Assembly: GCA_016929255.1 (NCBI GenBank)
Contig: JAFGJH010000029.1
Coordinates: 375 to 64,374 of the forward strand
Reading direction: 5' to 3'
Origin: Candidatus Woesearchaeota archaeon
GTDB taxonomy: Archaea > Nanobdellota > Nanobdellia > Woesearchaeales > UBA11576
Length of the DNA: 64,000 nt
Part shown: one piece after another, positions 4,401 to 46,008 of the stretch
How the letters are laid out: each line of letters starts with the position of its first letter
Position numbering within the stretch: position 1 is the stretch's first letter
The notes under the pieces: generated by a model
The model's database searches: none
Seen by the model: only the letters and a program-made list of their open reading frames with translations
What the model was told of the DNA's origin: nothing
Program-made: the position numbers and the translations under genes

Positions 4401-7400
4401 CGTCAGGAGTTATCGTGACATCAATGGAATCAAGGAAACTACCCAATTGCTGGAATGCCTCCTCTGAAGTCAGATTTATGTCAGTGAAGTTGAACTTGGC
4501 AGAACGATGCAACAAGTCATCTGCAACAAGAGCAGGAATTCCGCATGACGTAGAGTAGTTCAGGTCTATGAGCAGGTTCAGGTCTATGTGGTTCCAGTCA
4601 GTCTCTGTACTGAAATCAGTTGAGCCTGCTGCAATCTCACCGCATCCTGCAGGATCACCAGGCATGAGAGTCATGTTGTAGAGCACTACGGTCTCAAAGA
4701 CAATATCAAGACCTCCTTCTTGGGGATTGCCTGCAAAATCATACGCAATAAGAGTTATGTTCTTCGGCTCAAAGTCATAGGAGCTGGTGTCTGATACGCT
4801 CGCATCCACCACCCAAAGCCCAGAATCAGGGGTCATGTTCACTATGGAAACATTAGCGGAAGGTATCTCTGTAAAATTCGCGGTCACGTATGCCACACCA
4901 GTACCTGCATCAGTGTAATTGGCCTCTATCGAAATGACATTATTAGGCGCGAAACCGCTTACCATAATATCAGGCTCATCAAGCGCAGTGTAATCGACTA
5001 CCGGTCCGACAACATCATAAGTGACCGTCCTTGTCGCTGAGCTGCCCGCGTTGCCGTTGATAGTATCTAAGACATTGGAACCCGCCTTATCATAACATGT
5101 GACATTCCATGTGTAGATGCCAGGCGCTGCGAATGACAAAGTCAATGTTGTGGCAGTATCATTAATCGTAGTGTCGTTACCAATCGTCGAGACAGGGGTT
5201 CCTGAAGCGTTGTAGAGTGTCGCGTTGCAGGTAGCGTTGGTCGCAAGATCGTCAGTCACAATGAATACCGCATCAAAAGACCCGACGCTCGTGTTGAAAC
5301 TATCAGCAGGAGATGAAGGCATCACAGAAGGTGCTGTGTTATCCACTATGATGTCAAAAGCCTCTGTATCATTGTACATATATCCGTTCGTTGCGTTTAC
5401 TACGAGGTCGCTCGTCGGACCATCAATGAAACCTGAAAGATAAACAACAGCCCACCATATCGCATTGGTAGGGTCCGCGCCCGACATCACCATCGGCTGA
5501 GCAGCTGTCCCGTTCCATACTGCGACAGCGGTCACGGGCTGCACATCAGTCACGTTCACAGAGAAGTTGAACATGCTGAACATCCTGACATCCGGGTACA
5601 TAGGCATATCTAAAAGAACGCCAGGCATTGAGCAGACCGGAGGAGCGCCGTAAGTGGTCCAGCCGTTCGAGGCGTTATACGGATAACTGTCCACTACATT
5701 GGCCGCGTTCGAGTCCACACCGGCCGTGAATAAAGAACCGCAGGTCGAATGACCCCAATAGTTGCCCTGATTATTATAATACAGGTCTATAGAGATAAGA
5801 GCATAAACACCGTACTCTGAATTGCTGTATATGTTGTTGTGCCACAGCCGGGTCGTGTTGCTGTCCAGCGAAACTCCGCGTCCAGTGTTGCTCGAGACAT
5901 TGTTCCTAGTGATATTATGATTCGTGCCTGCTATGCTCATCCCGCCAATAAAGCAAGAAGTAATAGTATTGTCCTCTATATTATTAGCAGAAGGCGTTCC
6001 CTGGACAGTTATTCCGGTGCTGTTCACATCATACAGGACGTTGGAAGATATGTTCATGCTGTTTATATTGGAAGTATAAACACCACCGATAAGGTTACTG
6101 CTGGCACCAGTCAAGTCATGTAGCGTGTTACCATAAATCAGCCCGTTGCTAGCAGAACCTCCCGTCACCGCAATCCCTGCCTCATTAGCGACACCTAATG
6201 ATGTAGTGTCGTGAACTATATTACTCATGATCTTGAAACCTGTAGCGGCGCCACTGACAAGTATGCCCTGGAATTTGCTCCCGTACACATTGTTGCCAGT
6301 AATGTTCGAACCTGATCCCCCTTCGACCCAAGCACCATAGTAATTATTATAAAGCGTGTTGTTCAGGAGAAGCACGTTGCTGCTGCCCGTAGCATAGATT
6401 CCTGCCTCGACACCGCTGGTGGTGTTGTAGCCATATATTGTGCAGTTCTTTACAGTAACTCCATTGGCAGTTATGTAAACTCCATACTCGTTGCCGCTGC
6501 TCACATAGTCGCCCTGGATGTGATGACCGTTGCAGTCGAGAGTCACGCCTGCAGTAGCTATGTTCAGACCATTGCCCGTGCAGCCAGCCAAGTCAGCAGG
6601 CAGTGTAGTGTCGCTAGTTATTGTGTCGCCGCACTGCAGATTGAGCGCAGCATACACAGTCTTTGTAGACTCTGTATTGTTTACATTGTCAGTAGAATAG
6701 TACTCAAGAGTATTATTGCCCAAAGCATCGATTGTCACTTCAATCGGTCCTGGCCCGCCAGTCACCCATCCTCCTGAGTTGTAATTGTAGCTTATGTTCC
6801 TACATCCCGAGCTACCGTCGCTGCAGGTGAGATTTACAATATACGGCGCACTATGCCAGCCGCCAGTCTCATTCGTCGTAGTCGACGGAGCAGTGCAGTC
6901 AGTCCATCCTGGGAATATGGTTGCAGTAGCAAGGTTGCCTGCAAGGTCCCACACGCGGAGGTTCAGGTTGTAGTCCTGCTCAGCAGTTGAGGTGCTTGTA
7001 GTCGCGATGCAGTATCCGTGAGTGCTATTGCCACTCCAAGAGGTGCTGGTGTTGTGCCATTGGGCTGGCCCGCTCCTGTCCTTCCATTCGCATGAAGATG
7101 TATTGATTCCTGAACCAGTGTCACTGAAATTGGCAGTGATATTGATATCATTCCTATTGCATGCAAGCCAAGTGCCGTAGACATAAGTGAAATTCACCGC
7201 CGTAGTTGCGCCTGCTGTCGGCGGATTGGAATCAAATAGGAAACTGCGGGTTTCAGAAACATTCGTATCGGTCGTATTTGAGCAGGTTATGTTCCAGAAA
7301 TTCGCATCTTCAATGAAAGCTTCGCTGGAATATATTGCGGCCAGAATATCGACCACAACAGATGCCTGTGAACCAACAACCACGCCGTTTAGCGTGAGAT

Positions 7401-7759: not shown

Positions 7760-10700
7760 TCATGCCTCCGGCTCCTCCCCTATCTCTTCCACAGCCTTCA
7801 AGACAGCCAATCTCAGGTCTCGTGGCCAGGTCTTCTCTATCTCTTTGCTGTAGGTGTGCAGCGCCTTCAGCACATCAGGCCGTATGCCTGTGCGCTCGCC
7901 CTCAAGCATCCTGACAATCTCCTTCTTCGCGAACATGGGCACGCGCTTGAGGTTCCAGGCCTGCTTGATCAGCCGCTGCTTCGTGGACTCGTGTCCGGTA
8001 TCAACCTCGATGCCTTTCCACAGGTCCTCATACACCTTCTTGGTGTCCTCGTCAAAGCTGTCCTTCCTTCCCTGCTCAAGGGATATCTTCGCAAGCACGA
8101 GCTTGTGCATGCGCTTCAGGAACTCTATCCTGTCCTCCATGCGTATCATGTCCATGTGGCCCTGCAGCACAAGGTTGAAAGCGAAAGGGCTCGGGATTGC
8201 AGTATCAATGCCCTTCACGGAGATGCTGTGGTTCTCTATCATGCGGATCACACGTGTGGCATTCTCGATGTCCATAAGGTCCTCGAGCACCTCACGCCTT
8301 GCCTCCTTCAGCACAGGGAAGTCCTTTGATATCCTCTTCACAGCAGACATGAGTATCATTGAGGAGACCTGCTGCCTGCCGACTTTCTTCTGGTGCCCCT
8401 TATAGCTCCTTAGTATCATGAGCGCACGGCCTGCGCAGTGGCGGAACCTCCTGCTCAGCACCTGCGTCCTGTCTATCGCCATGTTGAGCAGCTCATCGAG
8501 CCTCCTGGACTCGAGCAGGGAGAGAGCACGCGCAGCAGGCAGGTTCTTCTTAGCGGCAAGGTAGAAACCGTTGTCAGTCACGCCGATCTCCACATCCTTC
8601 TTCTGGGTCTTGGATATCACGAAAGCGACTGCCCTCGAGAGGCAGTCATTCACCCTCCTGCCGAACATTGTGTGGAACACAGCATATTTCTTATCCTCAT
8701 CGAAATAATGCTCGATCACTATCTCCTTGTCTGTAGGTATCAGCGCGAAGTCATACTGCTCACGCATGTACTCATAGATGGCGTTCGCTGCGTTGTCGTC
8801 TACATAAAGATGCGAATTTATGAACGCAAGAATGTCCTTCCTGGACATCTTGGCCTCGAACTTCTCGCGCATCAGGCGCCTGAACCTGCCGACCTCCTGC
8901 GCAAGGTCAAAGCTGAGGGGCAGCATCTCAGAGAACCACGACGGAACAGTCGGCTTCTTTCCCACAGCAGCCCTGACCTGGGCGACAGTGCCGCGGGAGA
9001 AAAGGAACTCATATGTTGAGCCGCCGAGAATGAACACGTCCCCGCGCTTCAGGCGCTCAAGGAACGCCTCGTCTATCATACCTATGACCTCTGCACCTAC
9101 CTTCACAGTCACGCCAGTCTCGTCAGGTATCGTGCCGATGTTAGTCATGTAAAGAACCCTGGCGAGCTTGCCCTTCCTGCCGACCATGCCTGTCTCAAGG
9201 TCATACCATATCTTCGCATAAACATGCCTGTCCTCGAGAGAGACATGCTCACCTGAAAGATAGCGTATGACTGAGTAAAAATCCTCGCTTTCAAGGCTTC
9301 GATAGCAATAACTCTTCTTGATGAGAGCAAGAAGCTCAGAGACGTGCATCTTCTCACTGATGCAGATGCCGTATATCTGCTGCGCTAGCACATCGAGGCA
9401 GTTGCTCGGGATGTGTATCCTGTCTATCTTTTTCTCCACAGCACTCTTGAGAAGGACAGAGCACTCGACGAGATCATCGCGGTCGAGCACTATGATGCGG
9501 CCCTTTGTTGTCGCATGCAGCTGGTGGCCTGAGCGGCCGACGCGCTGGAGCGCGCGGGCTACTGACTTGGGGGAGCCGAGGAGTATCACAAGGTCTATGT
9601 AACCGATGTCAATGCCTAGCTCAAGTGATGTGGAGCAGACGACGCACTTGATCTTTCCCTGGCGCAGGCCTTCCTCTATCCTATGACGATGGGTCTTCGA
9701 CAGCGATCCGTGGTGCGCTCCGATGGCGGTGACCTTCTTGTACTCTTTCTCGTCCAGGATGTTCGGTATTTCCTCCTGCTCAGCAGGCGATGCCGCAACC
9801 GCCACTTTGCGAGCCGAAACGGAATCAGTCTTTGCGCCCGTCGCGGGGGACGTCTCCGACCGAAGGGAGCGAGATGCCAAAGCCGCAGCTTTGAGCACCC
9901 CATCCGGGGAGGCAGGGCCTGCGAAACCTCCATCAAAAGGCGAGCCTGGCGTTGCGGCATTGCCATCACCATCACCATTCTCAAGCACAACATTGCCTTC
10001 GCTATTCGTTTTCAGCTTTGCCTTGAAGTCATCTTCATCAGCATTAGTAATCACGTCAGTGTAGTTCTTCGGGAAGCGCTCCTTGAGGTAATGGACAATC
10101 CTCTCTGTCGCCGAGCGGGTGTTTGTGAAGATGAGTGTGGTCTTGTGCTGCTGGATCAGGCCGTTGATCAGATCGTACATCCTGTTGTGCATGCCTTCAT
10201 GCGTCGTGTCTATAAGGTCAGGCACCGGAGACAGCACCTTCATGTCTAGCTGCTTTATGAACTGCACATCAACTATCCTGCAGCTGCGCGCTGTGCCAAC
10301 GAGGAACTTAGCCACATCCTCCAACGGCGCTATCGTCGCAGAAAGCCCGACACGGCACATGCCAGGCGAGATGCGCTGCAGCATCTCCATACTCAGGCTC
10401 AGATGCACACCCCTCTTGTTCTCAGCAAGAGCGTGTATCTCGTCGATGATGCCCCACTCGACACTGCTCAGGTGCCTGCGGAAGTTCACAGACTGCAACA
10501 GGATTGCCAGGGATTCAGGTGTCGTGATGAGGATGTGAGGCGGGATCTTCATCATCTTTGCACGCTCTTTGGGTGATGTGTCCCCTGTGCGGACCCCGAC
10601 TCGTATGCCCAGGCGCTTCCCCGCAAGCTTCTCTATCTCCTTCAGGGGATTCCGGAGGTTGTGCTGGATATCATAGTTCAGCGCCTTCAGCGGGGAGATG

Positions 10701-30535: not shown

Positions 30536-31216
30536 ATGTTTTTGGGAAGGTTTATAAATGCCTGCAGAAAAAGGCTCTGCATGCCAGAGGAGACCAAGAA
30601 GAAAAGCGTAGAACACATTGTGGACGACGCAATAAAGCCCGTACTAGGGGTAAGCATAGACGATCTCAACAGGGACATCTCAGAGAAACTGTCAAAAAGC
30701 CCGTTACTGTCCTTTGACATAGACACCAAGCTCAGCTTCAAGAAAGCGAAGAAAAAGTTCAAGCAGCAGTTCCTCTCGCGGCTGCTCAAGGTGACATACG
30801 GAAACATATCAGAAGTGGCAAAACGCGCCCGTGTTGACAGGCGCAGCATACACCGGATAGTCAAGGACGCAGGCATCGATGTCGCGAAGATACGCGAAGA
30901 GATGATTAAGCCTTACCAGATAAGGCAGAAAGCTGTCGGCAGCGTTATAGAAGATGTGCTTGAGCACTACAAGACAATCATACACCCTGAAAGGATGGCA
31001 GAGGTGTACAAGAGCGTAGACACAGTATCCAAGGAGATACTCGACGAGCTTCCAGAGAAACCAATATCCCTGAAAGAGGCGGAAGAGGAGTTTGAGAAGG
31101 AATACCTCAGGAAGGTGCTGGCAGAAGAGTCCGGCAATGTGACAAAGACGGCGCGCAAGATAGGCCTCAGGTACGAGACATTGCTGCGCAAGCTGAAGGC
31201 TCTGGGATTGAGATGA
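30536..31216 (+). CDS. DNA-binding protein with two tandem Fis-type helix-turn-helix domains
   Basis: KFKQQFLSRLLKVTYGNISEVAKRARVDRRSIHRIVKDAGI and FEKEYLRKVLAEESGNVTKTARKIGLRYETLLRKLKALGL are both classic Fis/NtrC-C-terminal HTH signatures. An alternative in-frame start lies at 30581. Confidence 0.65.
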   Translation: MFLGRFINACRKRLCMPEETKKKSVEHIVDDAIKPVLGVSIDDLNRDISEKLSKSPLLSFDIDTKLSFKKAKKKFKQQFLSRLLKVTYGNISEVAKRARVDRRSIHRIVKDAGIDVAKIREEMIKPYQIRQKAVGSVIEDVLEHYKTIIHPERMAEVYKSVDTVSKEILDELPEKPISLKEAEEEFEKEYLRKVLAEESGNVTKTARKIGLRYETLLRKLKALGLR

Positions 31217-31428
31217 AAAGGACCAGACACACACTCATAACAGCAGAGATCCTCGGCTTCTTCATGATAATCATAGGAGTGCTGGGGTTAATGACCGGCA
31301 GGAGGGTGTTCACCATCGCAGCAATCATGCTTTTTTGCCTGATACTTGCAGTGGCGGCGATGTTCGCGGTTTTTGCAGCCACATCAGTCAAAGAGCATAA
31401 GGCGAACAAAACCCATAAGAAGAAGTGA
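31213..31428 (+). CDS. small 2-TM membrane protein
   Basis: ILGFFMIIIGVLGLMTG and IAAIMLFCLILAVAAMFAVFAA, with a KKK tail; ATGA overlap with the upstream gene. Confidence 0.4.
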   Translation: MKRTRHTLITAEILGFFMIIIGVLGLMTGRRVFTIAAIMLFCLILAVAAMFAVFAATSVKEHKANKTHKKK

Positions 31429-31467
31429 TTAAATTTATATACTGAACAGAAAATTTTTGACTGATAG

Positions 31468-31489
31468 GGGCTCGTAGCTCAGCCTGGTA
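31468..31489 (+). other. 22-nt exact duplicate of the 5' end of the downstream tRNA-Ala gene (tRNA fragment, possible att-site remnant or split-tRNA 5' piece)
   Basis: gggctcgtagctcagcctggta at 31468-31489 is identical to 31602-31623. Downstream of the first copy there is no D-stem partner, anticodon arm or acceptor 3' strand; instead GC-rich hairpins follow (31490-31600). Confidence 0.5.
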
Positions 31490-31601
31490 ACGCGGCACGG
31501 CATCGCTCCGTGCACACGCGAACCCGGTCCCATCTCGCGAAGCTCGATGGGACGCTGCAGCAAATAACCCGCGAAATCATTTAACAAAATCATTTCAACA
31601 T

Positions 31602-31705
31602 GGGCTCGTAGCTCAGCCTGGTAGAGCGTCCCGTTCGCAACGGGGAGGCCTCGGGTTCAAAAGACAGCAATGCGGATTGCTGAACTGAAAGTCCCGACGA
31701 GTCCA
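31602..31705 (+). tRNA. tRNA-Ala (anticodon CGC) with about 30-nt intron in the T-loop
   Basis: Acceptor GGGCUCG/CGAGUCC with the G3:U70 Ala identity pair; D-arm GCUC-AGCCUGGUA-GAGC; anticodon arm UCCCG-UUCGCAA-CGGGG; variable AGGCC; T-stem UCGGG/CCCGA. The T-loop is UUCAAA + AGACAGCAAUGCGGAUUGCUGAACUGAAAG + U, i.e. a non-canonical intron near position 59/60. Confidence 0.8.
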
Positions 31706-31709
31706 CTTT

Positions 31710-31809
31710 GGGGCATTAGTGTAGCTTGGACGGCAAGCGTTGCTCTGCCGGAGCAATATCACTGGCGGTTCGGGGCCGCCCGACCGGGGTTCAAATCCTC
31801 GATGCCCCA
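31710..31809 (+). tRNA. tRNA-Gly (anticodon GCC) with atypical D-arm and about 23-nt insertion (probable intron) in the variable region
   Basis: Acceptor GGGGCAU/AUGCCCC; anticodon arm UUGCU-CUGCCGG-AGCAA; canonical T-arm CGGGG-UUCAAAU-CCUCG. A 28-nt segment UAUCACUGGCGGUUCGGGGCCGCCCGAC sits between the anticodon stem and the T-stem and forms a hairpin. Only 4 nt separate it from tRNA-Ala. Confidence 0.7.
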
Positions 31810-32148
31810 TTTTTATTCCTTTTCGACACCAGAATGAATAATGAACTTATAGGCTTTCTATTGGTTGATATCCTTGGTTTTCTTGTTCTGGGATTTGTTG
31901 CTCATCTCCGGGCAAAACTTGATTTTTGTCCCAAATTGGCGGAATCAGTGCCAATAAGGACTTTCGATACCCGAATATCATGGATATAGCCCCTGAGAAT
32001 ATAAATGTTGTCCGGGAAAGGAGGATTTTCGATGCCTGGATGGTCTTGTTTATTATTATGACACTTAGAAATGACTAAAGTAGAACGCAGACTCCTACGA
32101 AACGTTTTTATATAGACTTGCTCTAAAAGCCCCAAAAGAGGTGTTAAA

Positions 32149-35100
32149 TTGGTTGTTGATGGTCAGAAGGCTGAAGCATACATAAAACAGGTTTTAGAAA
32201 AACTGAATCGTAAATATTCAGAGAAGACGTTTAGAACTCCTTTTGAAAACTTTATCAATTCATTGAGTCCAGATTATTCGCTTCAACAAGAGATAACGGA
32301 TGAAGGAATTGGAACACCAGACTTCAAAGCATTCTATAAAAATCACAAAGTGGGTTATATTGAAACTAAGGATTTTAATGCCACTCTTAAATTAGACACT
32401 GAGCAAATAAAACGGTATGTTGACTATGAGAATAACCTCTTGCTTACCAATTATGTTAAGTTTGTACTAATACGAAAAGGAAGAACAATACAGACTGCAA
32501 CGCTATTCTATCCCGAGATTAATTCTAAGAACAAAAGCCAAAAATTAAATCGGAAACACTTAGATGATGTTTTGACCCTCATTTCAGAATTCTTCGGATT
32601 TCCAATAACTCCAATCCAGTCAGCAAAAGAGTTGGCAGTCGAACTCGCAAAAAAAGCTAAATGGCTAAACTTGTTGTCTCAAGAGCAACTCGAGCTCGAA
32701 AGAACTCTCCCCAGAGATAAACGAGGTAGTATTTCTGAGTTCGAGATAGGACTTAAAGAGCTAATCGGAGATTACGAACAAGATATCAACTTTGGAGAAG
32801 CGTATGCAGAAACAATTACGTACGGACTCTTTTTAGCCAAGCTAGAATTAGGAAATAATAAAACACTGGATAAAAACACCGCGTATCAATTCATCCCTCC
32901 ACAAATAAAAGTCATCAAAAGAATTTTTAGGAACATAACCGACCCAGGAGAGCTTCCGCAGTCTCTCTCATGGGTGGTTGATGATATAATAGATATTCTC
33001 AATCTTACTGACTTAAATAAGTTCATTGCAGAGTTCCATGTGGATGGAGAAATATTCAGAGATCCATTTTTCCATTTTTATGAGGATTTTTTATCTGAGT
33101 TTAATCCAGTAAGAAGAAAGAAGATGGGGGTCTACTATACCCCCATCCCTATAGTTAAATTTATTGTCCGCTCAACAAATAGCATATTAAAGAAAGAGTT
33201 TCATCAAAAACTAGGATTTGCAACTGAAAACGTTCATACGCTGGATCCGTGTGTAGGAACTGGAACTTTCTGCGTATTGGCGATAATGGAAGGAATAAGT
33301 GAGTTGAAAAAACACAAATTGATGGGTTTGAAAAAAAGTAAAATAAAGAACCACTTCCTAAAGAGATTTTTTGGTTTTGAGATTTTAGTGTCGCCTTACA
33401 TAATTGCTCATATGAAGATTGGAGAATTACTTGAACAAGATAAATATGAGTTAGGTGTGGATGAACGAATACCTGTTTATTTAACAAACACACTGGAACT
33501 GCATCCTGAAGAAGGTCACGAACTATCTCCGTTTCTTACTGTAATTAAGAATGAAGTTCATACTGCAAATGAGATTAAGACCAAGAAACCGCTTCTTGTA
33601 GTAATGGGTAATCCGCCTTATTCAAGCAGTAGCTTTAATGATAAAAAATGGATTAAGAAGAAAATTGAGGATTATAAAGAAGGATTAAATGAAAGAAAAC
33701 TCGGAGATCTTGATGACGATTACGTTAAGTTCATACGGTTTGCTCAGTGGGAGATTGAAAGACAAGGCAAAGGTGTTGTTGCTTTTATAACTAGCAACGG
33801 GTATCTTGAAGGAATAACTTTTCGAAAAATGCGTGAAAATCTGTGCAAGACATTTGATAAAATATATATCTTAAACTTACATGGAAACTCTAGAATAGGT
33901 GAGCATTCTCCTGACGGCTCAAAAGATGAAAATCCATTTAACATCCAGACGGGTGTTGCAATTGGTTTGTTTGTGAGAAATTCTGAAAAACCAAAGAAAA
34001 TTGCAGATGTCTACTACTTTAATGAGTATGGGCTCCGCGATCTAAAACTTAAGTTCTTGAATAAGAATATGGTTGACACAGTTAAATGGAAAAAACTTGA
34101 TATGTTTGATGAGAATTTCTGGTTTGTTCCTAAGGATCATTCAACTTACAAAAAATATGCTGAGTTTTTCGAGGTTAGACATATTTTCAAAGAGTATAGT
34201 AGTGGTGTAGAAACTAAACGAGATAATTTTGTTATAGACTTTGAAAAAAAAGAACTGATTGATAGACTTACTAAATTTGCTAATACTGACGAACGTGTTG
34301 ATGTTACGAGACGTATTTTCGGGCTTTCTTCAAAAAGTGATTTGGATGTGGTTGGTGCTCAGAAGTTCTTGAAGAGCAATAAATATAAGTTATCAGATTT
34401 TGTTATAAAATATAACTACAGACCCTTTGATGAACGGTTATTATTTTATAAAGAATCTCTTGTTAGTAGAACAAGATTGCCATTTATGAACAGTTTATTA
34501 TTGCCAAATATTGCTCTGAATTTATGTAGACAAGTCAGACCGTCTCACCCATTTAATCATGTTTTTGTCACTAACAACGTTACTGATAGGATTTTGTTAT
34601 CAAATACAACCTCTGAGTGTAGCTTTGTTTTCCCTCTGTATATCTATGAAAAAGAAACGCAGTTGAAACTAGGCTCACAGAAATCAAAAACAGGAAAGAA
34701 ACAAATTAATTTTACAGAGGAGTTCAAAACGTTCTTAAAAAATGAATACAAAAAAGATGTCGCACCAGAAACTGTAATGGGTTACATATATGCCATACTA
34801 AATTCCTGCAAATATAAGACAGAGTTTCAAGAAGCATTACGAACTGACTTTCCGAGGGTTTACTTTGTCAAGAGTTTGAAGAAATTTATAAAGATTGCCG
34901 AATTAGGTTCTGAGCTAGTTGATCTTCACCTTTTGAAAAAGAAGAAACTGAACAGGGTCGGAACTTTTGAAGGAAAAGGAAACAACTCTGTTGAAAAGAT
35001 AATATATAAAGATGATAAAATATTCATAAACAAAAATCAATACTTTGGCAAAATCAGTAAGGACTTATGGGAGTTCAAGATTGGAATATATCCTGTATTA

Positions 35101-35241
35101 AATAAATGGCTCTATTACCGAAAAGGTAGAACGTTATCAAATAATGATGTCGAGACGTTTATTGATATAGTCAGCAATATCTCTGAAACAATCAAGATAT
35201 TAACAGAAATAGACAAAATAGACATTTTTAAAGGAGAATAA
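32149..35241 (+). CDS. single-polypeptide type IIG/IIL restriction-modification enzyme (MmeI-like: N-terminal PD-ExK nuclease + gamma-class N6-adenine methyltransferase + C-terminal target-recognition region)
   Basis: TTG start with AAGAGGTG Shine-Dalgarno and an upstream TATA. N-terminal GTPDFKAFYKNHKVGYIETKD (D...E.K nuclease motif). Methyltransferase motifs VYYTPIPIV (motif X), LDPCVGTGTF (motif I), VVMGNPPYS (motif IV NPPY). About 400-aa C-terminal region; 1030 aa. Confidence 0.65.
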   Translation: MVVDGQKAEAYIKQVLEKLNRKYSEKTFRTPFENFINSLSPDYSLQQEITDEGIGTPDFKAFYKNHKVGYIETKDFNATLKLDTEQIKRYVDYENNLLLTNYVKFVLIRKGRTIQTATLFYPEINSKNKSQKLNRKHLDDVLTLISEFFGFPITPIQSAKELAVELAKKAKWLNLLSQEQLELERTLPRDKRGSISEFEIGLKELIGDYEQDINFGEAYAETITYGLFLAKLELGNNKTLDKNTAYQFIPPQIKVIKRIFRNITDPGELPQSLSWVVDDIIDILNLTDLNKFIAEFHVDGEIFRDPFFHFYEDFLSEFNPVRRKKMGVYYTPIPIVKFIVRSTNSILKKEFHQKLGFATENVHTLDPCVGTGTFCVLAIMEGISELKKHKLMGLKKSKIKNHFLKRFFGFEILVSPYIIAHMKIGELLEQDKYELGVDERIPVYLTNTLELHPEEGHELSPFLTVIKNEVHTANEIKTKKPLLVVMGNPPYSSSSFNDKKWIKKKIEDYKEGLNERKLGDLDDDYVKFIRFAQWEIERQGKGVVAFITSNGYLEGITFRKMRENLCKTFDKIYILNLHGNSRIGEHSPDGSKDENPFNIQTGVAIGLFVRNSEKPKKIADVYYFNEYGLRDLKLKFLNKNMVDTVKWKKLDMFDENFWFVPKDHSTYKKYAEFFEVRHIFKEYSSGVETKRDNFVIDFEKKELIDRLTKFANTDERVDVTRRIFGLSSKSDLDVVGAQKFLKSNKYKLSDFVIKYNYRPFDERLLFYKESLVSRTRLPFMNSLLLPNIALNLCRQVRPSHPFNHVFVTNNVTDRILLSNTTSECSFVFPLYIYEKETQLKLGSQKSKTGKKQINFTEEFKTFLKNEYKKDVAPETVMGYIYAILNSCKYKTEFQEALRTDFPRVYFVKSLKKFIKIAELGSELVDLHLLKKKKLNRVGTFEGKGNNSVEKIIYKDDKIFINKNQYFGKISKDLWEFKIGIYPVLNKWLYYRKGRTLSNNDVETFIDIVSNISETIKILTEIDKIDIFKGE

Positions 35242-35258
35242 ATACCCGAGGTTGAATC

Positions 35259-36356
35259 TTGTCTGAATTCACATCCGAATCTGTAACGGAAGGCCACCCA
35301 GATAAAATCTGTGATCAAATCAGCGATGCTGTTCTTGATGCATGCTTAAAACAGGACAGAAAGTCTCGAGTGGCATGTGAAGTTTTTGCAACTGGCAACC
35401 ACCTAATCCTGGGTGGAGAAATCACTTCTAAGGCTAAGATAAATCCTGAAGCCATTGCTAGACGAATAATTAAGAGAATAGGTTACACATCACAGGATAT
35501 GGGCTATTCTTATGACTCAGTAAATATCCAGAACTTAATACAGAAACAGTCTCCAGAAATCTCAATAGGGGTTGATAAAGGGGGTGCAGGAGATTCTGGT
35601 CTAATGTTCGGGTATGCTACAAACGAGACCAAAGAGTTAATGCCTTTACCAATTCTCCTTGCTCATAAACTAGCTAAACAATTAGCAGATATGCGCCGTT
35701 CGAAGTTGAGATATCTAAGACCTGATGGTAAGGTTCAGGTGACTGTTGATTACGAAAATAAGACTCCTAAATCTGTTAGTGCAATAGTTGTATCTGCACA
35801 ACACACCTCAGAAATTTCTCTCAAGAAACTCAGAGATGACTTAGAGAAACATGTTATTAAACCAGTTTGTTCCAAGTACATGACAAAAAAAACTGAGTTG
35901 ATGATAAATCCAGCAGGGAAATTTACTATTGGAGGACCCGTTGCGGATACTGGACTTACCGGAAGAAAACCTGGAGTTGACACCTATGGAGGTATAGCTG
36001 CGCATGGTGGAGGTGGCTTTTCTGGAAAAGATCCTACCAAAGTGGATAGATCTGGAGCATATATGGCCCGATATGTTGCCAAAAGTATCGTTTCCTCAAG
36101 ATTGGCTGATAAGTGTGAGATTCAATTGGCTTATGCAATAGGTAAAGCACAACCAGTCTCTTTACTAATTGATACACAAGGAACGAATAAGATTCCTGTT
36201 CAGGAGATATATGGGATAGTCAAACGTAAATTTGACTTCACACCTAACGAGATAATAAGAAAGTTGAATCTACTTAACCCGATATATGAAAAAACTGCTG
36301 CGTATGGGCATTTTGGAAGACCTAGTTTCTCTTGGGAACAATGTTGTAAACTCTAG
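35259..36356 (+). CDS. metK: S-adenosylmethionine synthetase, bacterial/eukaryotic MetK type
   Basis: [57 protein letters not shown] are canonical MAT motifs. TTG start 18 nt after the upstream stop. Archaea normally use a distinct archaeal-type MAT. Confidence 0.85.
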
Positions 36357-36555
36357 TCTTTTGAGTACCATCCGCAGTACCAACAATCACCTTATACATC
36401 TCATCAAACCTCTTCTCGAAGACGAAGTCCTTGTCCAGGGCTGTGTATCTGAGATAGCTCGCTAATGACTTGTGCCCCTTGGCCTGGGCGTTGTTCTGGA
36501 TTCTCTCGTATTGGGATTGAGTTACCCTGAACAATATCATCCGTGTTTTGGCCAT
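36322..36555 (-). CDS. MobC-like ribbon-helix-helix protein (plasmid mobilisation accessory protein family)
   Basis: [36 protein letters not shown] matches the MobC/RHH pattern (R...VRxTxxExxxIxxxAxxxGxSxSxYxR). Its 3' end overlaps the metK end by about 35 nt. Confidence 0.5.
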
Positions 36556-36655
36556 TGTTGGTTCCCAATAAATGCCTATTTAACCGGAGCAGTGAAACCG
36601 CTGAAAGCCCTGAATTCCGGCTTTCTGGGCGGTTTCGCCATTGATTTAATGGCGC

Positions 36656-37990
36656 TCAATGGTAATAGCATATTTCCTCCACCATTTTCTTCGCCTTTTT
36701 GGGCGTCAGAGCAAAGCTTTTCTTTCCGTCAACAAACTGCGAGTATCTTGGAAGCAGGTCTTTCTTGCAGACGTAAATCCAGCAGTCAAAGTTCTCATTC
36801 AGCCAGGCAGTCTTCTCAGCAAGGTCATCCAACTTGTTGGTTCCGGTCTCAATCTCAATAGCTACCTTGTAATCTTCAATGTTGAGATAGACATCAACCC
36901 GCCTGTCCTTGACCTCTTTCTCAATCTGCATGTTCTCATGCAGCTCTGCAAACAAATGCTTCATGTAGAAGTGATACGGAGTCTCCTGAGAGTCACCTCT
37001 CTGGATGTAGAAGCCTCCGCTCAAATGGCTGTCAAGCTCTTTACCTCTTATGAACTCAAAGCCCTGCTTCTGAGCGCGTATCTTCTGCTCCTTGGTCAAA
37101 TCCCGCGCTCTGTAGAAGACTTTTTCCAGTCTCTGGCCATTATACTCTAATCCTGCCTTCTTATCTACACAGAGGGCGCCAGATTTGATTTCAGACCTGA
37201 CCTGAAGAAAGACCTCAACCTCCTTCGGATCTTTCAACTGAGGCACTGAATCAATGTCATACCGAGAATAGTAATCAGTCGCTTCCTCACGTTTCCACTT
37301 CAGCCAATCCTGCTCCTCAAAATACTGCCTGGCCCTGAAGCTTGCCTCTTGCAGGACATGCTCGGAATAATCACTATTTGCAGGGATGGACTTAGGATTA
37401 CGCACCTTGATTTTGTACTGGACAAGCTCCTCAACAACATTCTCAAAACGCCTAAGTTTTTCTTCTTCTCTGCGTTTCTCCAATGCTATCCTTCTGCGCT
37501 CCTCGGCCTCTGCTTCGAGTTTTCTTTGTCTGGCCAGTTCTTCTTCAATCTGCTTCTGTTTTACAATCAATGGAGCTCTTTTACAGAGATCATCAAGAAG
37601 CTGCTGGAATTGGGCGACCTCTTCCTTCGGGTATTTCAGGAGTTTCTTTTTTATGACATCCAGCCTTGACATGACCTGAGAGGAATTAAACTGACTGAAA
37701 TCCTCGCGGGCATAGCTCTTTATCTCGTTAAGGCGCTGCAAACGCTGCTTTTCTTCTTCCTGCTTGTCTTCCTTTCTTTGATTCAACCATCTTCGTAAAT
37801 TCCACGTTATGAGGAACAAGAAGATTGATGATAAAAGTATGATTCCTATCGCAAGCCAGGGCAATGCGAGAAAAGAATTGACATCTCGCATTACTTCAAG
37901 CCCGTGTTTCTTCCAAAACACCAGGCCCGCAGCCCCTATAGCTACAGCTACAACTATGAAGACTTCTACGTTAGAATCCATATTTTTCAC
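36656..37990 (-). CDS. membrane-anchored coiled-coil protein with C-terminal PD-(D/E)xK nuclease-like domain
   Basis: Two N-terminal TM helices (VEVFIVVAVAIGAAGLVFW, WLAIGIILLSSIFLFLITW), a long E/K/R-rich coiled coil, and C-terminal HFYMKHLFAELHEN...RRVDVYLNIEDYKVAIEIETGTNK (D...E.E.K-like). Confidence 0.5.
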   Translation of the reverse strand: MKNMDSNVEVFIVVAVAIGAAGLVFWKKHGLEVMRDVNSFLALPWLAIGIILLSSIFLFLITWNLRRWLNQRKEDKQEEEKQRLQRLNEIKSYAREDFSQFNSSQVMSRLDVIKKKLLKYPKEEVAQFQQLLDDLCKRAPLIVKQKQIEEELARQRKLEAEAEERRRIALEKRREEEKLRRFENVVEELVQYKIKVRNPKSIPANSDYSEHVLQEASFRARQYFEEQDWLKWKREEATDYYSRYDIDSVPQLKDPKEVEVFLQVRSEIKSGALCVDKKAGLEYNGQRLEKVFYRARDLTKEQKIRAQKQGFEFIRGKELDSHLSGGFYIQRGDSQETPYHFYMKHLFAELHENMQIEKEVKDRRVDVYLNIEDYKVAIEIETGTNKLDDLAEKTAWLNENFDCWIYVCKKDLLPRYSQFVDGKKSFALTPKKAKKMVEEICYYH

Positions 37991-38417
37991 ATCCTACTTA
38001 CTGATTTCTAAGTATAAAAATTTTGTAATGAATTTGTAATACAATATCCGCAATCATGATTTATAAATTTTGTAATGCAAAGCGATATACAAAATCGCCT
38101 TTAAATAATTTGTAGCCCATTTGCGGGCCACATTCATAATAAGTCCTGTGAACATATTAACCTCCTTAACAAAAACTACGGCATACATACGGAATATGCC
38201 GCAGCCGATATTTGAATGTCCTTAACAACAGACATATAACGGATATATAACATAAAAAGGTCTTTAACAAAAACCATACAACAACACTACAACAACTATT
38301 ATGTCGGGAGGATATAAGAATATTAGCGGACTTTCGTGCCCACAAATCAATTAGAAACAAGCAGGTATAAAAAGAGTCGAGTCAAAAAATGCGTACAGAT
38401 TCCTGTACAGAAACACC

Positions 38418-39026
38418 TTATTTTTGTTCCTTTTCCTTTTGATGGTTCTTGAATGCTGTTTCTATGCTGTTTATGACAGGTCTACCCATAAATTCAAGAA
38501 GAAGATGATTTGATTTTAAATTGTTAATGCCTTCTTGGCGTAATTTTTTATCTTCAAAATCAAGAGAATATTTTGCAATACCTTCAGCCATTTTACAGGA
38601 TAGGAATTTTGACTCGCTTGAAAGCTGATTGACAAGATCCAATACCAATATTTCTCCAGTAATTCCTTCTTTGTGCTCTTCTAACTCATCCAATGCAGTT
38701 TTGATTTTATAGATGAAACCTTTCACCGCTCTGTCGTATTCTTCTGAATCTGCAAGATCTATCCTTATCCTTATTGTTCCTATCTCTTCTGTTATGAACT
38801 TAAATTGTATATGCGGGAAGTCGTGTGGCTGGTCTGGATGGTGTTCAATAGCGTAATTCCTGTGTTTGGGCACATCCCTTTCTGATCTAGTCTTTACCCT
38901 GAGTGAAAATCCTTCTTCGATTATGTTGATATTTCCTCCTTCTGCCACCTCCACGCGGATTCCCGACTTAGAATCATCATACGTTGTCTGGTGAAAATAC
39001 TTATTTGAATATTTGACCCATTCCAT
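38418..39026 (-). CDS. hypothetical protein (island gene)
   Basis: 202-aa A/T-rich ORF, same strand as its neighbours; no family recognised. Confidence 0.45.
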   Translation of the reverse strand: MEWVKYSNKYFHQTTYDDSKSGIRVEVAEGGNINIIEEGFSLRVKTRSERDVPKHRNYAIEHHPDQPHDFPHIQFKFITEEIGTIRIRIDLADSEEYDRAVKGFIYKIKTALDELEEHKEGITGEILVLDLVNQLSSESKFLSCKMAEGIAKYSLDFEDKKLRQEGINNLKSNHLLLEFMGRPVINSIETAFKNHQKEKEQK

Positions 39027-39029
39027 ACA

Positions 39030-39902
39030 TTATCTCCTCGTGATATTAAACTGTTTCATGAGCTTATCTTCATAAGATAAACTATTCCACTCCGAACTCA
39101 TCTTGTTTGCTAGAGATGATGCGATGCTGCGTTTCCATTCATCTGTAACTTTCTCTTCCTCACTTAATCTCAGCGGGTCTTCCACATCAGAATTAAACGA
39201 ATCTTCACTAAGACCATGTTCGTAGTACAGTTTTCTCCATAGAACCAGATTCTCATAGTCAAGTCTAAGCGCATTCTCCTTGAAGGATATCCTAAATTCT
39301 TTGCGCAGAGCAACGCTTATTGATTTTAAGTATAATGTCAGATAATCCTTGGAGTAATGTTTATGGGTATTGTCAACTCCGAAGAATTCAGTTGGCGAGA
39401 GTGTCCTTTTTCCAATGAAAACTTTTTTAATCTGAATATCAAGTGTAAAATCTTTTTTTACACCTTTGATAACATTATGTTCAAATTCGCAGCCCACCTG
39501 TTGACCTGCAAAAGTCGTTGTAAAAAAAGCTCTTTTACGTTTATACTTAATGGCTAGAAGATTCTGGTTACCTTTTGTTTTAGTTGTTGTCCCTAGTATT
39601 TTAGCTATAACATCATTGAATGTTTCATCACCTTCTTTAAGAGCATTCAATGTTTCCCACACATCAACATCAACTTTGATATTCTTTGATCTTTTTGGTA
39701 AAGCAGTGATATTGTGTGATAGAGAATTCTGTAATGCACTTAGTTCAGCAGTAGATATTTTTTGTATATCTGAGTTAAAGTTTTTAAAAAATAGTTCAAG
39801 CTCTTTCTTTCTCGAATCATCCATGTTTTCAATCAATCTCTCATAAAACTCTATATTTCTTTTTCTAGTTGCGCTGTCGGAATTTGTTTTTTTTAGGCCC
39901 AT
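39030..39902 (-). CDS. hypothetical protein (island gene)
   Basis: 290-aa A/T-rich ORF, 4 nt from the downstream gene (operon); no family recognised. Confidence 0.45.
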   Translation of the reverse strand: MGLKKTNSDSATRKRNIEFYERLIENMDDSRKKELELFFKNFNSDIQKISTAELSALQNSLSHNITALPKRSKNIKVDVDVWETLNALKEGDETFNDVIAKILGTTTKTKGNQNLLAIKYKRKRAFFTTTFAGQQVGCEFEHNVIKGVKKDFTLDIQIKKVFIGKRTLSPTEFFGVDNTHKHYSKDYLTLYLKSISVALRKEFRISFKENALRLDYENLVLWRKLYYEHGLSEDSFNSDVEDPLRLSEEEKVTDEWKRSIASSLANKMSSEWNSLSYEDKLMKQFNITRR

Positions 39903-40000
39903 TTAGTTCACCTTGACTACTAAGTATACTTAGTATAAAGGTATACTATTATTTAAATATTCCTATTTATTTATAAATAAATGTTGAAAATTCTTCGGTT

Positions 40001-40783
40001 TTAACTGCTACTTCGTAACATACTACATATTCTTTCAAACTCCTTCGGCGTTATCTCCCCATACGCCAGCCTTCTCTTGGCAATATCCAGCGGGTCCTCG
40101 GGCTGCTGCGGTGCGGCTGTTATTGACGCTGCCTGGCTCTGCGGTTTGTCATCTACATCCACATCCTCTACCATCTTGTTGAGTTCTGTGTCAAGGATCC
40201 ATGTGTAGGTCAGAGTGGTGTCTATCTCATCATGCCTCATGAAATGCTGCACTTTTTCGATTGGCACGCCATTATTCAATAAATGTGTACACCTGGAATG
40301 CCTCAGCGTATGAAATTTATACTGGTGCTGGACTCTGCCGCAGCCGTCCTCATGGATTGGCTTGAACATCCCTGCCCGTTCCATTGCCTTCTTGTAGTCC
40401 TTGTAGATTCCACTCTTTGTGTAATGGGGCATGCCGTAGATGTCTGAAGGCAGAAAGTATTCCTCATCAGGGTTCATCAGCTTCCACTTCTGCAATACAG
40501 GAATACATACCGAACTTATAGGCACGAAGCCATCCTTGTAGTTCTTGCCCTCAACAACCTTCAAGCGCTTGTTGTCCAGATCAATGTCAGTCCACCTTAA
40601 CTTAGCCACCTCTGAAATACGCAGGGCACAGAAGAAAGCCATAAACGTGGCCATCATGGTCTTGGGTGTGTTGATATGGTCGAACAGCTTAACCATTTCA
40701 TTCTTGAAGAAGACATTCGGATACTTCCGACGTTTCTTCTTGGTTTCCTGTGTCTTGCTTAAAGGTTTTCTTGGCCGCGCCAT
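40001..40783 (-). CDS. tyrosine recombinase/integrase (XerC/D-phage integrase family)
   Basis: Catalytic-domain motifs ALRISEV (Arg I), HTLRHSRCTHLLNNGVPIEKVQHFMRHDEIDTTLTYTW (H-x-x-R ... Y nucleophile region). Confidence 0.8.
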   Translation of the reverse strand: MARPRKPLSKTQETKKKRRKYPNVFFKNEMVKLFDHINTPKTMMATFMAFFCALRISEVAKLRWTDIDLDNKRLKVVEGKNYKDGFVPISSVCIPVLQKWKLMNPDEEYFLPSDIYGMPHYTKSGIYKDYKKAMERAGMFKPIHEDGCGRVQHQYKFHTLRHSRCTHLLNNGVPIEKVQHFMRHDEIDTTLTYTWILDTELNKMVEDVDVDDKPQSQAASITAAPQQPEDPLDIAKRRLAYGEITPKEFERICSMLRSSS

Positions 40784-41181
40784 TTTAGACCTCCAATCAC
40801 AGCCATCATCTCAGCCATGATATCCTTGCCTGCCTTTGTGTTCATCATCCTGCGCCATTCATAGCTCATAGTCATGCCATCCTTGATAGAGACCTTTCTA
40901 GCTTTGAGCTTTTCCTTGACATGAGACGGTGCGCGTTCCAGAAGCAGCCAGCAATAGACCGTCTTTGGGCTCAGCTCGTGCTTCATCAGTAGGTCGTAGA
41001 TTGCCCTTTGTGTCTCATTCAATTCCTTGTGCTTGCCTTCCCGAAAGCTCTGCACCTGCAACACCAATCCAACCAGCTCCTTGTCCGGTGTGTCCTTTGT
41101 GACCGGCTTCAAAATCTGTCGGATGGCTTCTATCCGCTCAAACACATTCATCTTTTTCCATTTCCTGTTCATGGGTTTCAT
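40759..41181 (-). CDS. hypothetical protein upstream of and overlapping the integrase start (possible regulator/excisionase-like)
   Basis: 140-aa ORF; repeated motif actttgtataacaaagcgatatc just upstream (41211-41236). Confidence 0.4.
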   Translation of the reverse strand: MKPMNRKWKKMNVFERIEAIRQILKPVTKDTPDKELVGLVLQVQSFREGKHKELNETQRAIYDLLMKHELSPKTVYCWLLLERAPSHVKEKLKARKVSIKDGMTMSYEWRRMMNTKAGKDIMAEMMAVIGGLKWRGQENL

Positions 41182-41941
41182 ACCTCATGTATAATCCCAG
41201 AACACGAATAAAAACTTTGTATAACAAAGCGATATCAATAAATAGAAACAGCCACATCATCTGGTAAAACAGGGGAAACACCCCCATAAAAACAATCCCG
41301 ACTGCATCGGGATTGTTGAACGGGTAAAAAGGAATGAGTGCCGACTGCATCGGCATCATTCCTTTCTTCCCCATTTTATTTCACTGCGATGCCGGGAGGT
41401 GAGACCAGCGAACCTGAGGTTCGCGCTGACTCGCAGCCCTATTTTTATCCATCCGTGACAGAAAATCGGTTTTTGTGATCTACAATCACTTCTCGAACGC
41501 TTTCAAGCCGCCCTTCTTGAAAAGAGAATATGCGCGAAGGAAACTGAGTATCATATCAGAAGAGTCAAGGCCAGAATACTTCTGAAGAACATGAAAACCT
41601 GACTTGGTATTATTGTCATGCGTCTTGTAGAATATCGAGAAATAGCAATAGAAAAGGCATCGTCCGACGAGCTCGCTGTCAGAAGCGGCCAGCCCCGTGC
41701 CTGAAAACTCATTCATCTTATTCATGAGCGGCCTGAACCTCTCAGCGTTTAGCTTTATCGTGATCTGCTTTGTGATTCAATCACCTCTAAAGCGCATGAT
41801 ATCTTCAGGCAACACATAAAATAGGCTATTATTTAATTGTTTTGAAAATCGCCAGGACTGCAGCCCATGCCAAAAATGTCACACTTTCGTCTGTTTCTTC
41901 CCAATTTTGTTTATAAATCTGTTTAACATACATATCACATC

Positions 41942-44952: not shown

Positions 44953-46008
44953 ATGGAAGCGAACACAGCATACAGGATATCGCAGTATCCGGCACGTGAA
45001 GGTTCAGATAGTTCCACCTCTTACTTCTGCAGAGCTGACAGCGACCATGAAAGGAAGAAAAAAGAGCTCACATACATGATCAGGAAGGAGATTGACGCAG
45101 AGATACATCCCCATTTAAGGGAAATATCCCACCGGTTCGCGCAAGGGATAACGGACCTGCTCTACACATCCGGCAGGGAAGAACCTTTTCCGACGAGAAG
45201 GCAGACCCTCGACTACTTCGACAGGTCATTCATGCAGAGAGAGCTGAGGAGGGTCAAGGGAAACATAACCCAGTACGCAAGGGACGCGCTCGGCGCAGTG
45301 GACGAGGGCGAAGTGAACAACCTGCGCAGGAACGTCTACAGGCAGATAGAGAAGTACGGACTTGGCGGCCTCGTGGACGCGGCAAGGCCGTGGAAGCAGA
45401 CACCTCTCGAAGACACCATAAACCTGAACTATGTCAAGCCTGACAAGGTAGAGACCACGCTCACCGGCGTGCTCTCAGGATACAAGAATGTCATAAACCC
45501 GGGGCTCTACGACGACATAAGCGCAAGGATAAAGGAAAAGGCACCAGTCATAGCAGAGAGGATATCCCCTTATGCTCCTACACCTGAGAACAGGCTGAAA
45601 GACATCATGGGCACCACTGAAGGGGTGAGAAGCTACACAGGAGCCAGACAGACATTCGAGAGGCAGGTGGTCTATGACGCGCTGTCAGCAGCAGGATTCG
45701 ACAAGAGCAAAGCAGCAAAGTACCTCGGAGACTCGCTCAGGACGCTCAACAGGAGGATAGCAGAGCTAGGCATGGAAGAGCAGGCAAGGAAAGGAGAGCA
45801 GACAAATGAGATGCCGCGTGACAATGTCGTGCGCATAGACGAGTTCGTGCAGAAGAAGCTTGAGCCAGACATGCCGCCCCGGGCAGTCGGCGAGATAGAG
45901 AGGTTCCAGCAGCTGGTCAGGGAATACAATGCGAGGAGGGAATCAGCAAGAGAGAAGAAAGGACAGAAGAATAAACAGCAGAAGGTCAAGATAATGATTG
46001 CTGATTAG
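44953..46008 (+). CDS. hypothetical protein with C-terminal Fis-type HTH
   Basis: VVYDALSAAGFDKSKAAKYLGDSLRTLNRRIAELGM resembles the Fis-family HTH; the rest is unassigned. Confidence 0.45.
   Translation: MEANTAYRISQYPAREGSDSSTSYFCRADSDHERKKKELTYMIRKEIDAEIHPHLREISHRFAQGITDLLYTSGREEPFPTRRQTLDYFDRSFMQRELRRVKGNITQYARDALGAVDEGEVNNLRRNVYRQIEKYGLGGLVDAARPWKQTPLEDTINLNYVKPDKVETTLTGVLSGYKNVINPGLYDDISARIKEKAPVIAERISPYAPTPENRLKDIMGTTEGVRSYTGARQTFERQVVYDALSAAGFDKSKAAKYLGDSLRTLNRRIAELGMEEQARKGEQTNEMPRDNVVRIDEFVQKKLEPDMPPRAVGEIERFQQLVREYNARRESAREKKGQKNKQQKVKIMIAD

Follow-up and report, generated by a model that had tools for sequence, protein, structure and literature searches.

A duplicated tRNA-Ala 5′ fragment and a conserved two-hairpin module upstream of an intron-bearing tRNA-Ala/tRNA-Pro pair in a Woesearchaeota archaeon

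A pair of tRNA genes, for alanine and proline, each with a single intron at an unusual place, is found in the stretch of DNA analysed here (64 kb of a contig of a Candidatus Woesearchaeota archaeon, henceforth the window). The pair is preceded by a fragment of the 5′ end of the tRNA-Ala gene and by a hairpin element. The fragment with its hairpins is a real and conserved variant of the known tRNA-fragment phenomenon. The reading that we prefer, with a probability of about 0.5, is that positions 31468-31601 are a non-functional relic unit, consisting of the displaced original 5′ end of the gene (22 nt), a junction module and an A-rich spacer, that arose at the DNA level. The features of the locus are as follows.

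31429 to 31441, plus strand: archaeal BRE/TATA promoter TTAAATTTATATA, read from the sequence, with the TATA core TTTATATA at 31434-31441.
31468 to 31489, plus strand: pseudo-5′ exon (copy 1), repeating tRNA-Ala exactly from position 1 to about 21.
31490 to 31562, plus strand: two-hairpin junction module, defined by its fold, alignment A3 and covariance model R1.
31563 to 31601, plus strand: A/U-rich spacer, read from the sequence, with neither an oligo-T terminator nor a properly placed TATA box.
31602 to 31705, plus strand: tRNA-Ala(CGC) gene (Rfam tRNA model, 31.2 bits), with the G3:U70 identity pair.
31710 to 31809, plus strand: tRNA-Pro(CGG) gene (Rfam tRNA model, 38.6 bits).
31810 to 31816, plus strand: T-run TTTTTAT, a likely operon terminator judging by sequence and composition profile; a low-GC island begins directly after it.

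ARAGORN, proposed as a check in an earlier note made from the sequence alone, called no tRNA anywhere in the 64 kb in its default mode. Both genes were recovered with the Rfam tRNA model, which gave no third tRNA-like match in the window even at E-values up to 10. The match for tRNA-Ala covers 31602-31659 and beyond, and the earlier note was right in placing an intron of about 30 nt in the T-loop. It is a bulge-helix-bulge (BHB) intron of 30 nt (31662-31691) between positions 59 and 60, and when it is taken out ARAGORN returns tRNA-Ala(cgc) of 74 nt. The T-stem serves as the outer helix of this BHB, the central helix is UUCA:UGAA, and the bulges are AAA (AA/A) and AGU (AG/U); cloverleaf and 3-4-3 BHB together contain canonical pairs only and evaluate to -36.5 kcal/mol. 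The second gene, 4 nt downstream, had been taken for a tRNA-Gly(GCC) with a long D-region and a 23-nt hairpin in the variable region, which was wrong. Its Rfam alignment has one 33-nt insertion in the D-loop and an anticodon loop UUCGGGG, giving CGG. The supposed GCC anticodon hairpin sits within a 27-nt BHB intron in the D-loop (31730-31756; GG/.../UA), and the supposed variable-region hairpin is the real anticodon arm. Without 31730-31756, ARAGORN finds tRNA-Pro(cgg) of 73 nt. Here the central helix is GCUU:GAGC, the bulges are GGA (GG/A) and AAU (AA/U), the inner helix is CGGCA:UGCCG, and the cloverleaf with its 3-4-3 BHB again has canonical pairs only (-37.7 kcal/mol). The Gly(GCC) identity is ruled out by the Rfam alignment, by ARAGORN on the spliced form and by the intron-free gene of the closest relative (L002, see below).

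Both BHBs have the right handedness and one outer or flanking helix is relaxed in each, so they are non-canonical introns of a known kind, ordinary for archaea with disrupted tRNA genes. The broader claim of non-canonical introns in this cluster is therefore borne out by the Rfam matches, by ARAGORN on the spliced sequences and by the BHB geometry. Such introns have been described in Thermoproteales and in DPANN archaea, of which multiple lineages combine a loop-bearing EndA with disrupted tRNA genes, a Woesearchaeota genome being among those surveyed (PMC5829648, PMC4090602). We see no essential difference from them: both introns lie outside the anticodon loop (59/60 and D-loop), with a 3-4-3 BHB and one relaxed outer helix. 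A broad-specificity splicing endonuclease is predicted to remove both; no EndA gene was found among the 20 window ORFs scanned against Pfam.

Related loci were fetched by means of the neighboring HTH_8 protein (30536-31216). Their records are labelled Woesearchaeota, Nanoarchaeota or “uncultured Methanosarcinales” (third-party TPA MAGs), i.e., the naming is inconsistent. In most of the close relatives the tRNA locus is syntenic with this HTH_8 (Fis-type) protein and a 71-aa membrane-protein-like ORF (hydrophobic, by eye), together at 30536-31428 in the window; a second HTH_8 protein is encoded 13 kb away (44953-46008). The closest relative is L002, with a neighboring protein 92% identical to that of the window and with both tRNA genes intron-free. 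The tRNA exons of the two genomes are identical, the 4-nt spacer and the promoter match fully or almost fully, and the introns of the window appear as clean insertions of 30 and 27 nt. The Pro D-loop intron is found at the same site in L004, L010 and L030, and the Ala 59/60 intron in L004 and L009, all farther relatives. The introns are thus being gained or lost between close genomes. Other arrangements were seen as well. In L032 (720-1010) and L006 (6870-7222) the tRNA-Ala/tRNA-Pro pair is inverted relative to the HTH_8 gene, and the tRNA-Ala of that species has a 36-nt D-loop intron at 20/21. The tRNA beside the relic of L029 (2287-2369) has an Ala-like body, and removal of its BHB intron gives the loop UUCGAAA, with the anticodon CGA, which reads a serine codon; the contig stops short of the 3′ acceptor strand.

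The 22-nt sequence GGGCTCGTAGCTCAGCCTGGTA occurs exactly twice in the window, at 31468-31489 (copy 1) and at 31602-31623, the start of tRNA-Ala, with none expected from 100 shuffles. Copy 1 spans the acceptor 5′ strand, the D-stem 5′ strand and the D-loop. Similarity between the copies runs on weakly, to 32 nt at 88%, and 112 nt separate the repeats. An exact repeat of the tRNA-Ala start followed by structured non-tRNA sequence, as the earlier note had described it, is thus present, and it is not an error of one assembly: the Logan contig L001 (SRR13394437) contains copy 1 and 15 nt of its trailer, contiguous with the upstream genes, and the same architecture in related contigs indicates that the copy is not peculiar to one assembly. 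The end of copy 1 coincides with the site of the BHB intron 20/21 in the orthologous tRNA-Ala(CGC) of L032. The fragment is not kept intact in the relatives, given the changes in three of them. Those of L029 and L030 both have AAGCTTCAG, with A at position 8 and an extra T, that of L005 lacks G1, and D-stem mismatches are found among the three, so that as tRNA parts they are degenerate. In the window the 22 nt are still identical to the working gene, which requires that the event was recent or that gene conversion took place. That copy 1 is spliced in cis to the body of the tRNA, with 31490-31623 as a giant D-loop intron, was considered and rejected because no BHB is possible. It needs a self-complementary 4-mer in the repeat, the only ones are AGCU and CUGG, and the flanking helices fail for both (by hand). 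Likewise, splicing the L010 fragment to the 3′ part of its neighbor gives mismatched stems.

The promoter lies before the fragment and not directly before the intact gene. The TATA core ends 26 nt upstream of copy 1, and in alignment A4 nine loci, whether they have a fragment or not, share one distance between the TTTAAATAT box and the first GGGC downstream of it. In the window, L002, L005, L010, L029 and L030 the conserved TATA box is upstream of the fragment rather than of the intact gene, and in the fragment-free loci L003, L007 and L032 the same box is at a similar distance from the real gene. By eye, no comparable TATA box precedes the intact tRNA-Ala at 31602, and 31490-31601 contains no run of four or more T. 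As the sole archaeal TATA box lies upstream of the fragment, fragment, hairpins and spacer probably form the 5′ leader of a tRNA-Ala/tRNA-Pro operon. The A-rich spacer has counterparts of 2-40 nt at this position in most relatives; that of L009 reaches about 65 nt. A single transcript would then comprise the leader (fragment, module and spacer), tRNA-Ala and tRNA-Pro, and terminate in the T-run that begins at 31810; cleavage by RNase P would fall at 31602 and 31710, the leader of ~137 nt would be discarded, and a splicing endonuclease and a ligase would remove the Ala T-loop and Pro D-loop introns at their BHBs. In the predicted fold of the primary transcript it is copy 1, not copy 2, that pairs with the 3′ acceptor strand; hence the relic could interfere with folding of the pre-tRNA, and the structure of the module could matter there.

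The module itself is well defined. Hairpin 1 (31495-31513, GCACGG/CCGTGC) is joined by the linker ACACGCG to hairpin 2 (31527-31553, GTCCCATC/GATGGGAC), and both, already named in the earlier note, were recovered in the fold of the 134-nt unit (MFE -45.9 kcal/mol, z = -3.0). Members of this hairpin family are present at the same locus in nine related contigs. When the module of the window was aligned with those of five relatives (L005, L006/L032, L009, L029 and L004; alignment A3), pairing was found in 87% of the cells, against 26-37% with the partner slid, and 10 of the 14 pairs have both bases changed with the pairing kept. This compensatory change suggests selection on the module, or membership of a multi-copy or mobile family. 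The linker CACGYG and an ACG after hairpin 2 are conserved too. The covariance model R1, built from A3 (A-type modules), scores 80 bits on the module of the window and also matches copies outside the training set, two on the same strand (L004 and L030) and two antisense (L007 and L030), all of them at this tRNA locus, within the loci fetched via the HTH_8 protein. Rfam 15 at permissive thresholds contains no family matching 31490-31562; the only nearby non-tRNA match is SNORD47 on the minus strand of the spacer (31566-31606), which is sub-threshold (27 bits, the cut-off being 50). By eye, the module contains no C/D-box, H/ACA or BHB motif. The suggestion of a processing signal accordingly finds no evidence here, in the form of either a BHB or a known motif. 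Two scans of viral contigs gave nothing for one motif and, for the other, four chance matches in GC-rich coding DNA, and no meaningful match came from plasmids and phages by blastn. That the module is a degenerate anticodon arm plus T-arm can be ruled out, as the L005 and L010 units keep a remnant of the anticodon stem and loop upstream of hairpin 1. Elsewhere in the window, Rfam gave a sub-threshold match to the archaeal C/D-box sRNA sR14 inside an Lhr-type helicase ORF (8290-8345, minus strand; 25.4 bits against 38, E = 0.011).

Among the relatives the parts follow a simple rule. Read on the strand of the module, the order is a tRNA-end fragment, hairpin 1, hairpin 2, an A-rich spacer and an intact tRNA with the same first bases. 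This layout was found at the 5′ end of tRNA-Ala in the window, L002, L004 (twice), L005, L009, L010, L029 and L030, and in antisense at the 3′ end of tRNA-Pro in L006/L032 and L030, where the antisense module lies between tRNA-Pro and a 17-nt duplicate of its 3′ end. An exception is L007, in which an antisense module directly abuts the 5′ end of an intact tRNA-Pro, with no fragment or duplicate. The fragments measure 9, 11, 22, 27 or 33 nt for Ala and 17 nt for the 3′ end of Pro. The number of units varies as well: L032 has one copy of that made of the 17-nt Pro 3′ end, module and spacer, L006 has at least two (its assembly has an N gap there), and two different units are stacked in L004. Even between the window and L002, with identical exons, module types (A+Y and B+X, respectively) and fragment lengths are different.

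Directly after tRNA-Pro the window has an island of low GC content (about 35%; about 31810-41290). It encodes a type ISP-like N6-methylase/restriction protein (32149-35241), a bacterial-type S-adenosylmethionine synthetase (MetK)-like ORF (35259-36356, by eye), a VapB-like ORF and, on the minus strand, a tyrosine integrase (40001-40783). Sequence like that downstream of tRNA-Pro in L005 resumes at about 41290, and tRNA-Pro-like 3′ remnants are found at the far side of the island. There, 41368-41450 consists of CCCCA, a T-rich run, a hairpin (CAGCGAACC..GGTTCGCGCTG), a tRNA-Pro-like 3′ fragment CTCGCAGCCCTA and TTTTTAT, the same architecture as the antisense module and 17-nt Pro fragment of L030 and L032, and R1 gives no match to it. 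A second family of small hairpins, with the loop CGACT(G/T)CATCG or similar, flanks tRNA genes in several relatives (window 41290-41360, L005 7170-7260, L007 7030-7120).

We read the unit of the window as the scar of an older recombination event, independent of this island. An insertion or site-specific recombination at the end of the tRNA gene would have displaced the old promoter-proximal 5′ end and supplied a replacement that restored the gene, leaving the series tRNA-end fragment, module, spacer and intact tRNA. The occurrence of the layout in either tRNA orientation argues for an event at the DNA level, since an element acting at the RNA level would keep the orientation of the tRNA. Further support comes from the promoter before the fragment, the existence of a module family with conserved structure, the variable length of the fragments and number of units, the degeneration of fragments, and the differences between close relatives. 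The integrase island and the tRNA-Pro 3′ fragments on the opposite side of the operon show that recombination has a hot spot here. Several observations stand against a scar: only 112 nt, with neither an integrase nor an ORF, separate the repeats; the hairpins have been kept by compensatory change, which is unexpected of a decaying scar; the 22 nt of the window have not diverged from the working gene; and part of the modules would fit another origin, as exon 1 and intron of a former tRNA-Ala gene (see below).

The nearest precedent is the tRNA-Thr locus of Caldiarchaeum subterraneum, in which a fragment with positions 1-27 and the original upstream flank (tRNA-Thr-F) and a reconstituted tRNA-Thr-II flank an inserted, recombinase-encoding element of 1.8 kb, and for which site-specific integration at the tRNA 5′ end was proposed (PMC3293823, Sugahara et al. 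2012). As in that case, a 5′ fragment lies upstream of a complete copy of the same tRNA as a direct repeat, the original flank stays with the fragment, and introns are gained or lost between very close genomes. Unlike Caldiarchaeum, the space between the repeats is 112 nt, without an ORF and with a conserved two-hairpin module, and in relatives the units are stacked (L004 and L006) and found at both ends of the operon. The comparison with att duplications of the SSV/pNOB8 type comes out similarly. A direct repeat of a terminal tRNA segment lies beside a reconstituted gene, the fragment keeps its original flank (the conserved promoter), and there is an integrase island at the 3′ end of tRNA-Pro. 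In contrast with those systems, no element body lies between the repeats (no ORF of at least 70 aa within the 112 nt, the sole integrase being found beyond tRNA-Pro), and the junction is a conserved hairpin module, not arbitrary element DNA.

A tentative extension, which we hold possible but on the doubtful side, is that a small DNA element with the module as its conserved end, or a tRNA-carrying cassette with the module as its terminal inverted repeat, targets the ends of tRNA genes in this archaeal lineage and makes fragment duplications and, if it lands inside a gene and a BHB can form, new introns; or else that the units are real halves of trans-spliced Ala and Pro isoacceptors. The module is tied to the intron pool of the lineage, as B-type modules begin with AAUGGUUACGC, with which the canonical tRNA-Ala intron of L003, L007 and L030 natively starts, and a whole B+Y module, in the sense strand, is contained in the unusually long but intact canonical intron (92 nt) of the L003 tRNA-Ala(CGC) (6951-7116). 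It may perhaps be a small mobile or recombinogenic element that turns into an intron when it lands inside a gene.

That the module is instead a functional RNA element of the operon leader, acting in transcript stability, pre-tRNA folding or processing, with the fragment only incidental, seems to us unlikely. The compensatory changes speak for it, both hairpins being kept in relatives whose neighboring protein is 68-87% identical to that of the window, and so do the conserved linker and ACG, the constant position of the module within the transcribed leader at the Ala end, and the competition of the two copies for the 3′ acceptor strand in the predicted fold. However, the antisense copies of L030 and L032 lie behind the oligo-T run after tRNA-Pro, where transcription is unlikely, and of these that of L032 still has intact hairpins (hairpin 1 of L030 has decayed). 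L003 and L007 do without a leader module, module types are shuffled among close relatives, as between the window and L002, and neither an Rfam family nor C/D or H/ACA features correspond to it.

The link to introns could also mean that the unit is a truncated paralogue, i.e., what was left (exon 1 and the beginning of a long intron) when a former tandem tRNA-Ala gene lost its 3′ exon, so that the module would derive from an intron at the RNA level. We consider this unlikely. Besides the B-type start and the L003 intron, it would account for the Ala-like NGCAA anticodon-loop remnants before hairpin 1 in the relics of L005, L010 and L004, and for the match of R1, although built from A-type modules, to the B+Y unit of L004 (50.6 bits). 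It leaves unexplained the antisense copies at tRNA-Pro ends, always with hairpin 1 facing the fragment, and requires repeated loss of the 3′ exon.

The earlier note had raised the idea of a split tRNA, and a working 5′ half of a trans-spliced tRNA-Ala of another isoacceptor, the module pairing with the complementary leader of a 3′ half encoded elsewhere and a splicing endonuclease and ligase joining the two, is in our judgment quite improbable. What stands of it is a promoter of its own, correctly placed, and an end at 20-22, the site of the L032 BHB intron. The geometry is also the expected one, with 5′ fragments preceding the module and the Pro 3′ fragments of L030 and L032 following its reverse complement. 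The intact tRNA-Ala(CGC) directly downstream counts against a split half; Ala isoacceptors, for their part, usually share their 5′ sequence, which we counted in its favor. What did not stand is the partner. Direct and inverted 10-mer matches, blastn at word size 7, and regular expressions written for a 3′ half, an Ala 3′ end or a T-loop yielded chance matches only, and neither a complementary sequence nor a 3′ half was found in the 64-kb window or the fetched loci. Furthermore, the homologous fragments of L029, L030 and L005 break tRNA features, the tRNA-Pro 3′ fragment of L032 has no BHB-competent junction (by hand), and in L030 the left and right modules have diverged too far for mutual pairing. 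Resemblance to the split tRNAs of Nanoarchaeum equitans and Caldivirga maquilingensis, and to “recently split” tRNAs (PMC3218864), is partial: it extends to a promoter-driven 5′ piece ending at an intron position, followed by GC-rich structured non-tRNA sequence, and to reverse-complement modules before 3′ pieces in relatives, but here neither the window nor the fetched loci contain a partner, the fragment is directly followed by an intact gene that shares its 5′ sequence, and the homologous fragments are degenerate.

Finally, an attL/attR duplication left by the adjacent 9.5-kb island, also proposed in the earlier note, or an assembly artefact is very improbable: an integrase-bearing, low-GC island does abut the cluster, but it adjoins the 3′ end of tRNA-Pro, on the opposite side of the operon, with remnants of its own, whereas the fragment is a tRNA-Ala 5′ end located 112 nt upstream of its gene, and both relatives and a separate Logan assembly contain the unit.

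It has long been asked how ectopic introns arise in archaeal tRNA genes and how such genes come to be split, and we know of essentially one population-level example, that of Caldiarchaeum. At the locus described here, one pair of tRNA genes can be followed through related genomes, in some of which it has introns and in others none, even where the neighboring protein is 92% identical and the exons are the same. The genes are flanked by tRNA-end fragments of variable length joined, in either orientation, to a hairpin module of conserved structure. Such genes are missed or misidentified by standard tRNA finders; ARAGORN called none and the first reading took Pro for Gly. A module that is mobile, or that serves as a recombination site, would be a physical agent by which tRNA genes are disrupted, and if either the small-element or the split-half reading is true, the locus would provide a concrete route from intact to intron-containing and split tRNA genes.
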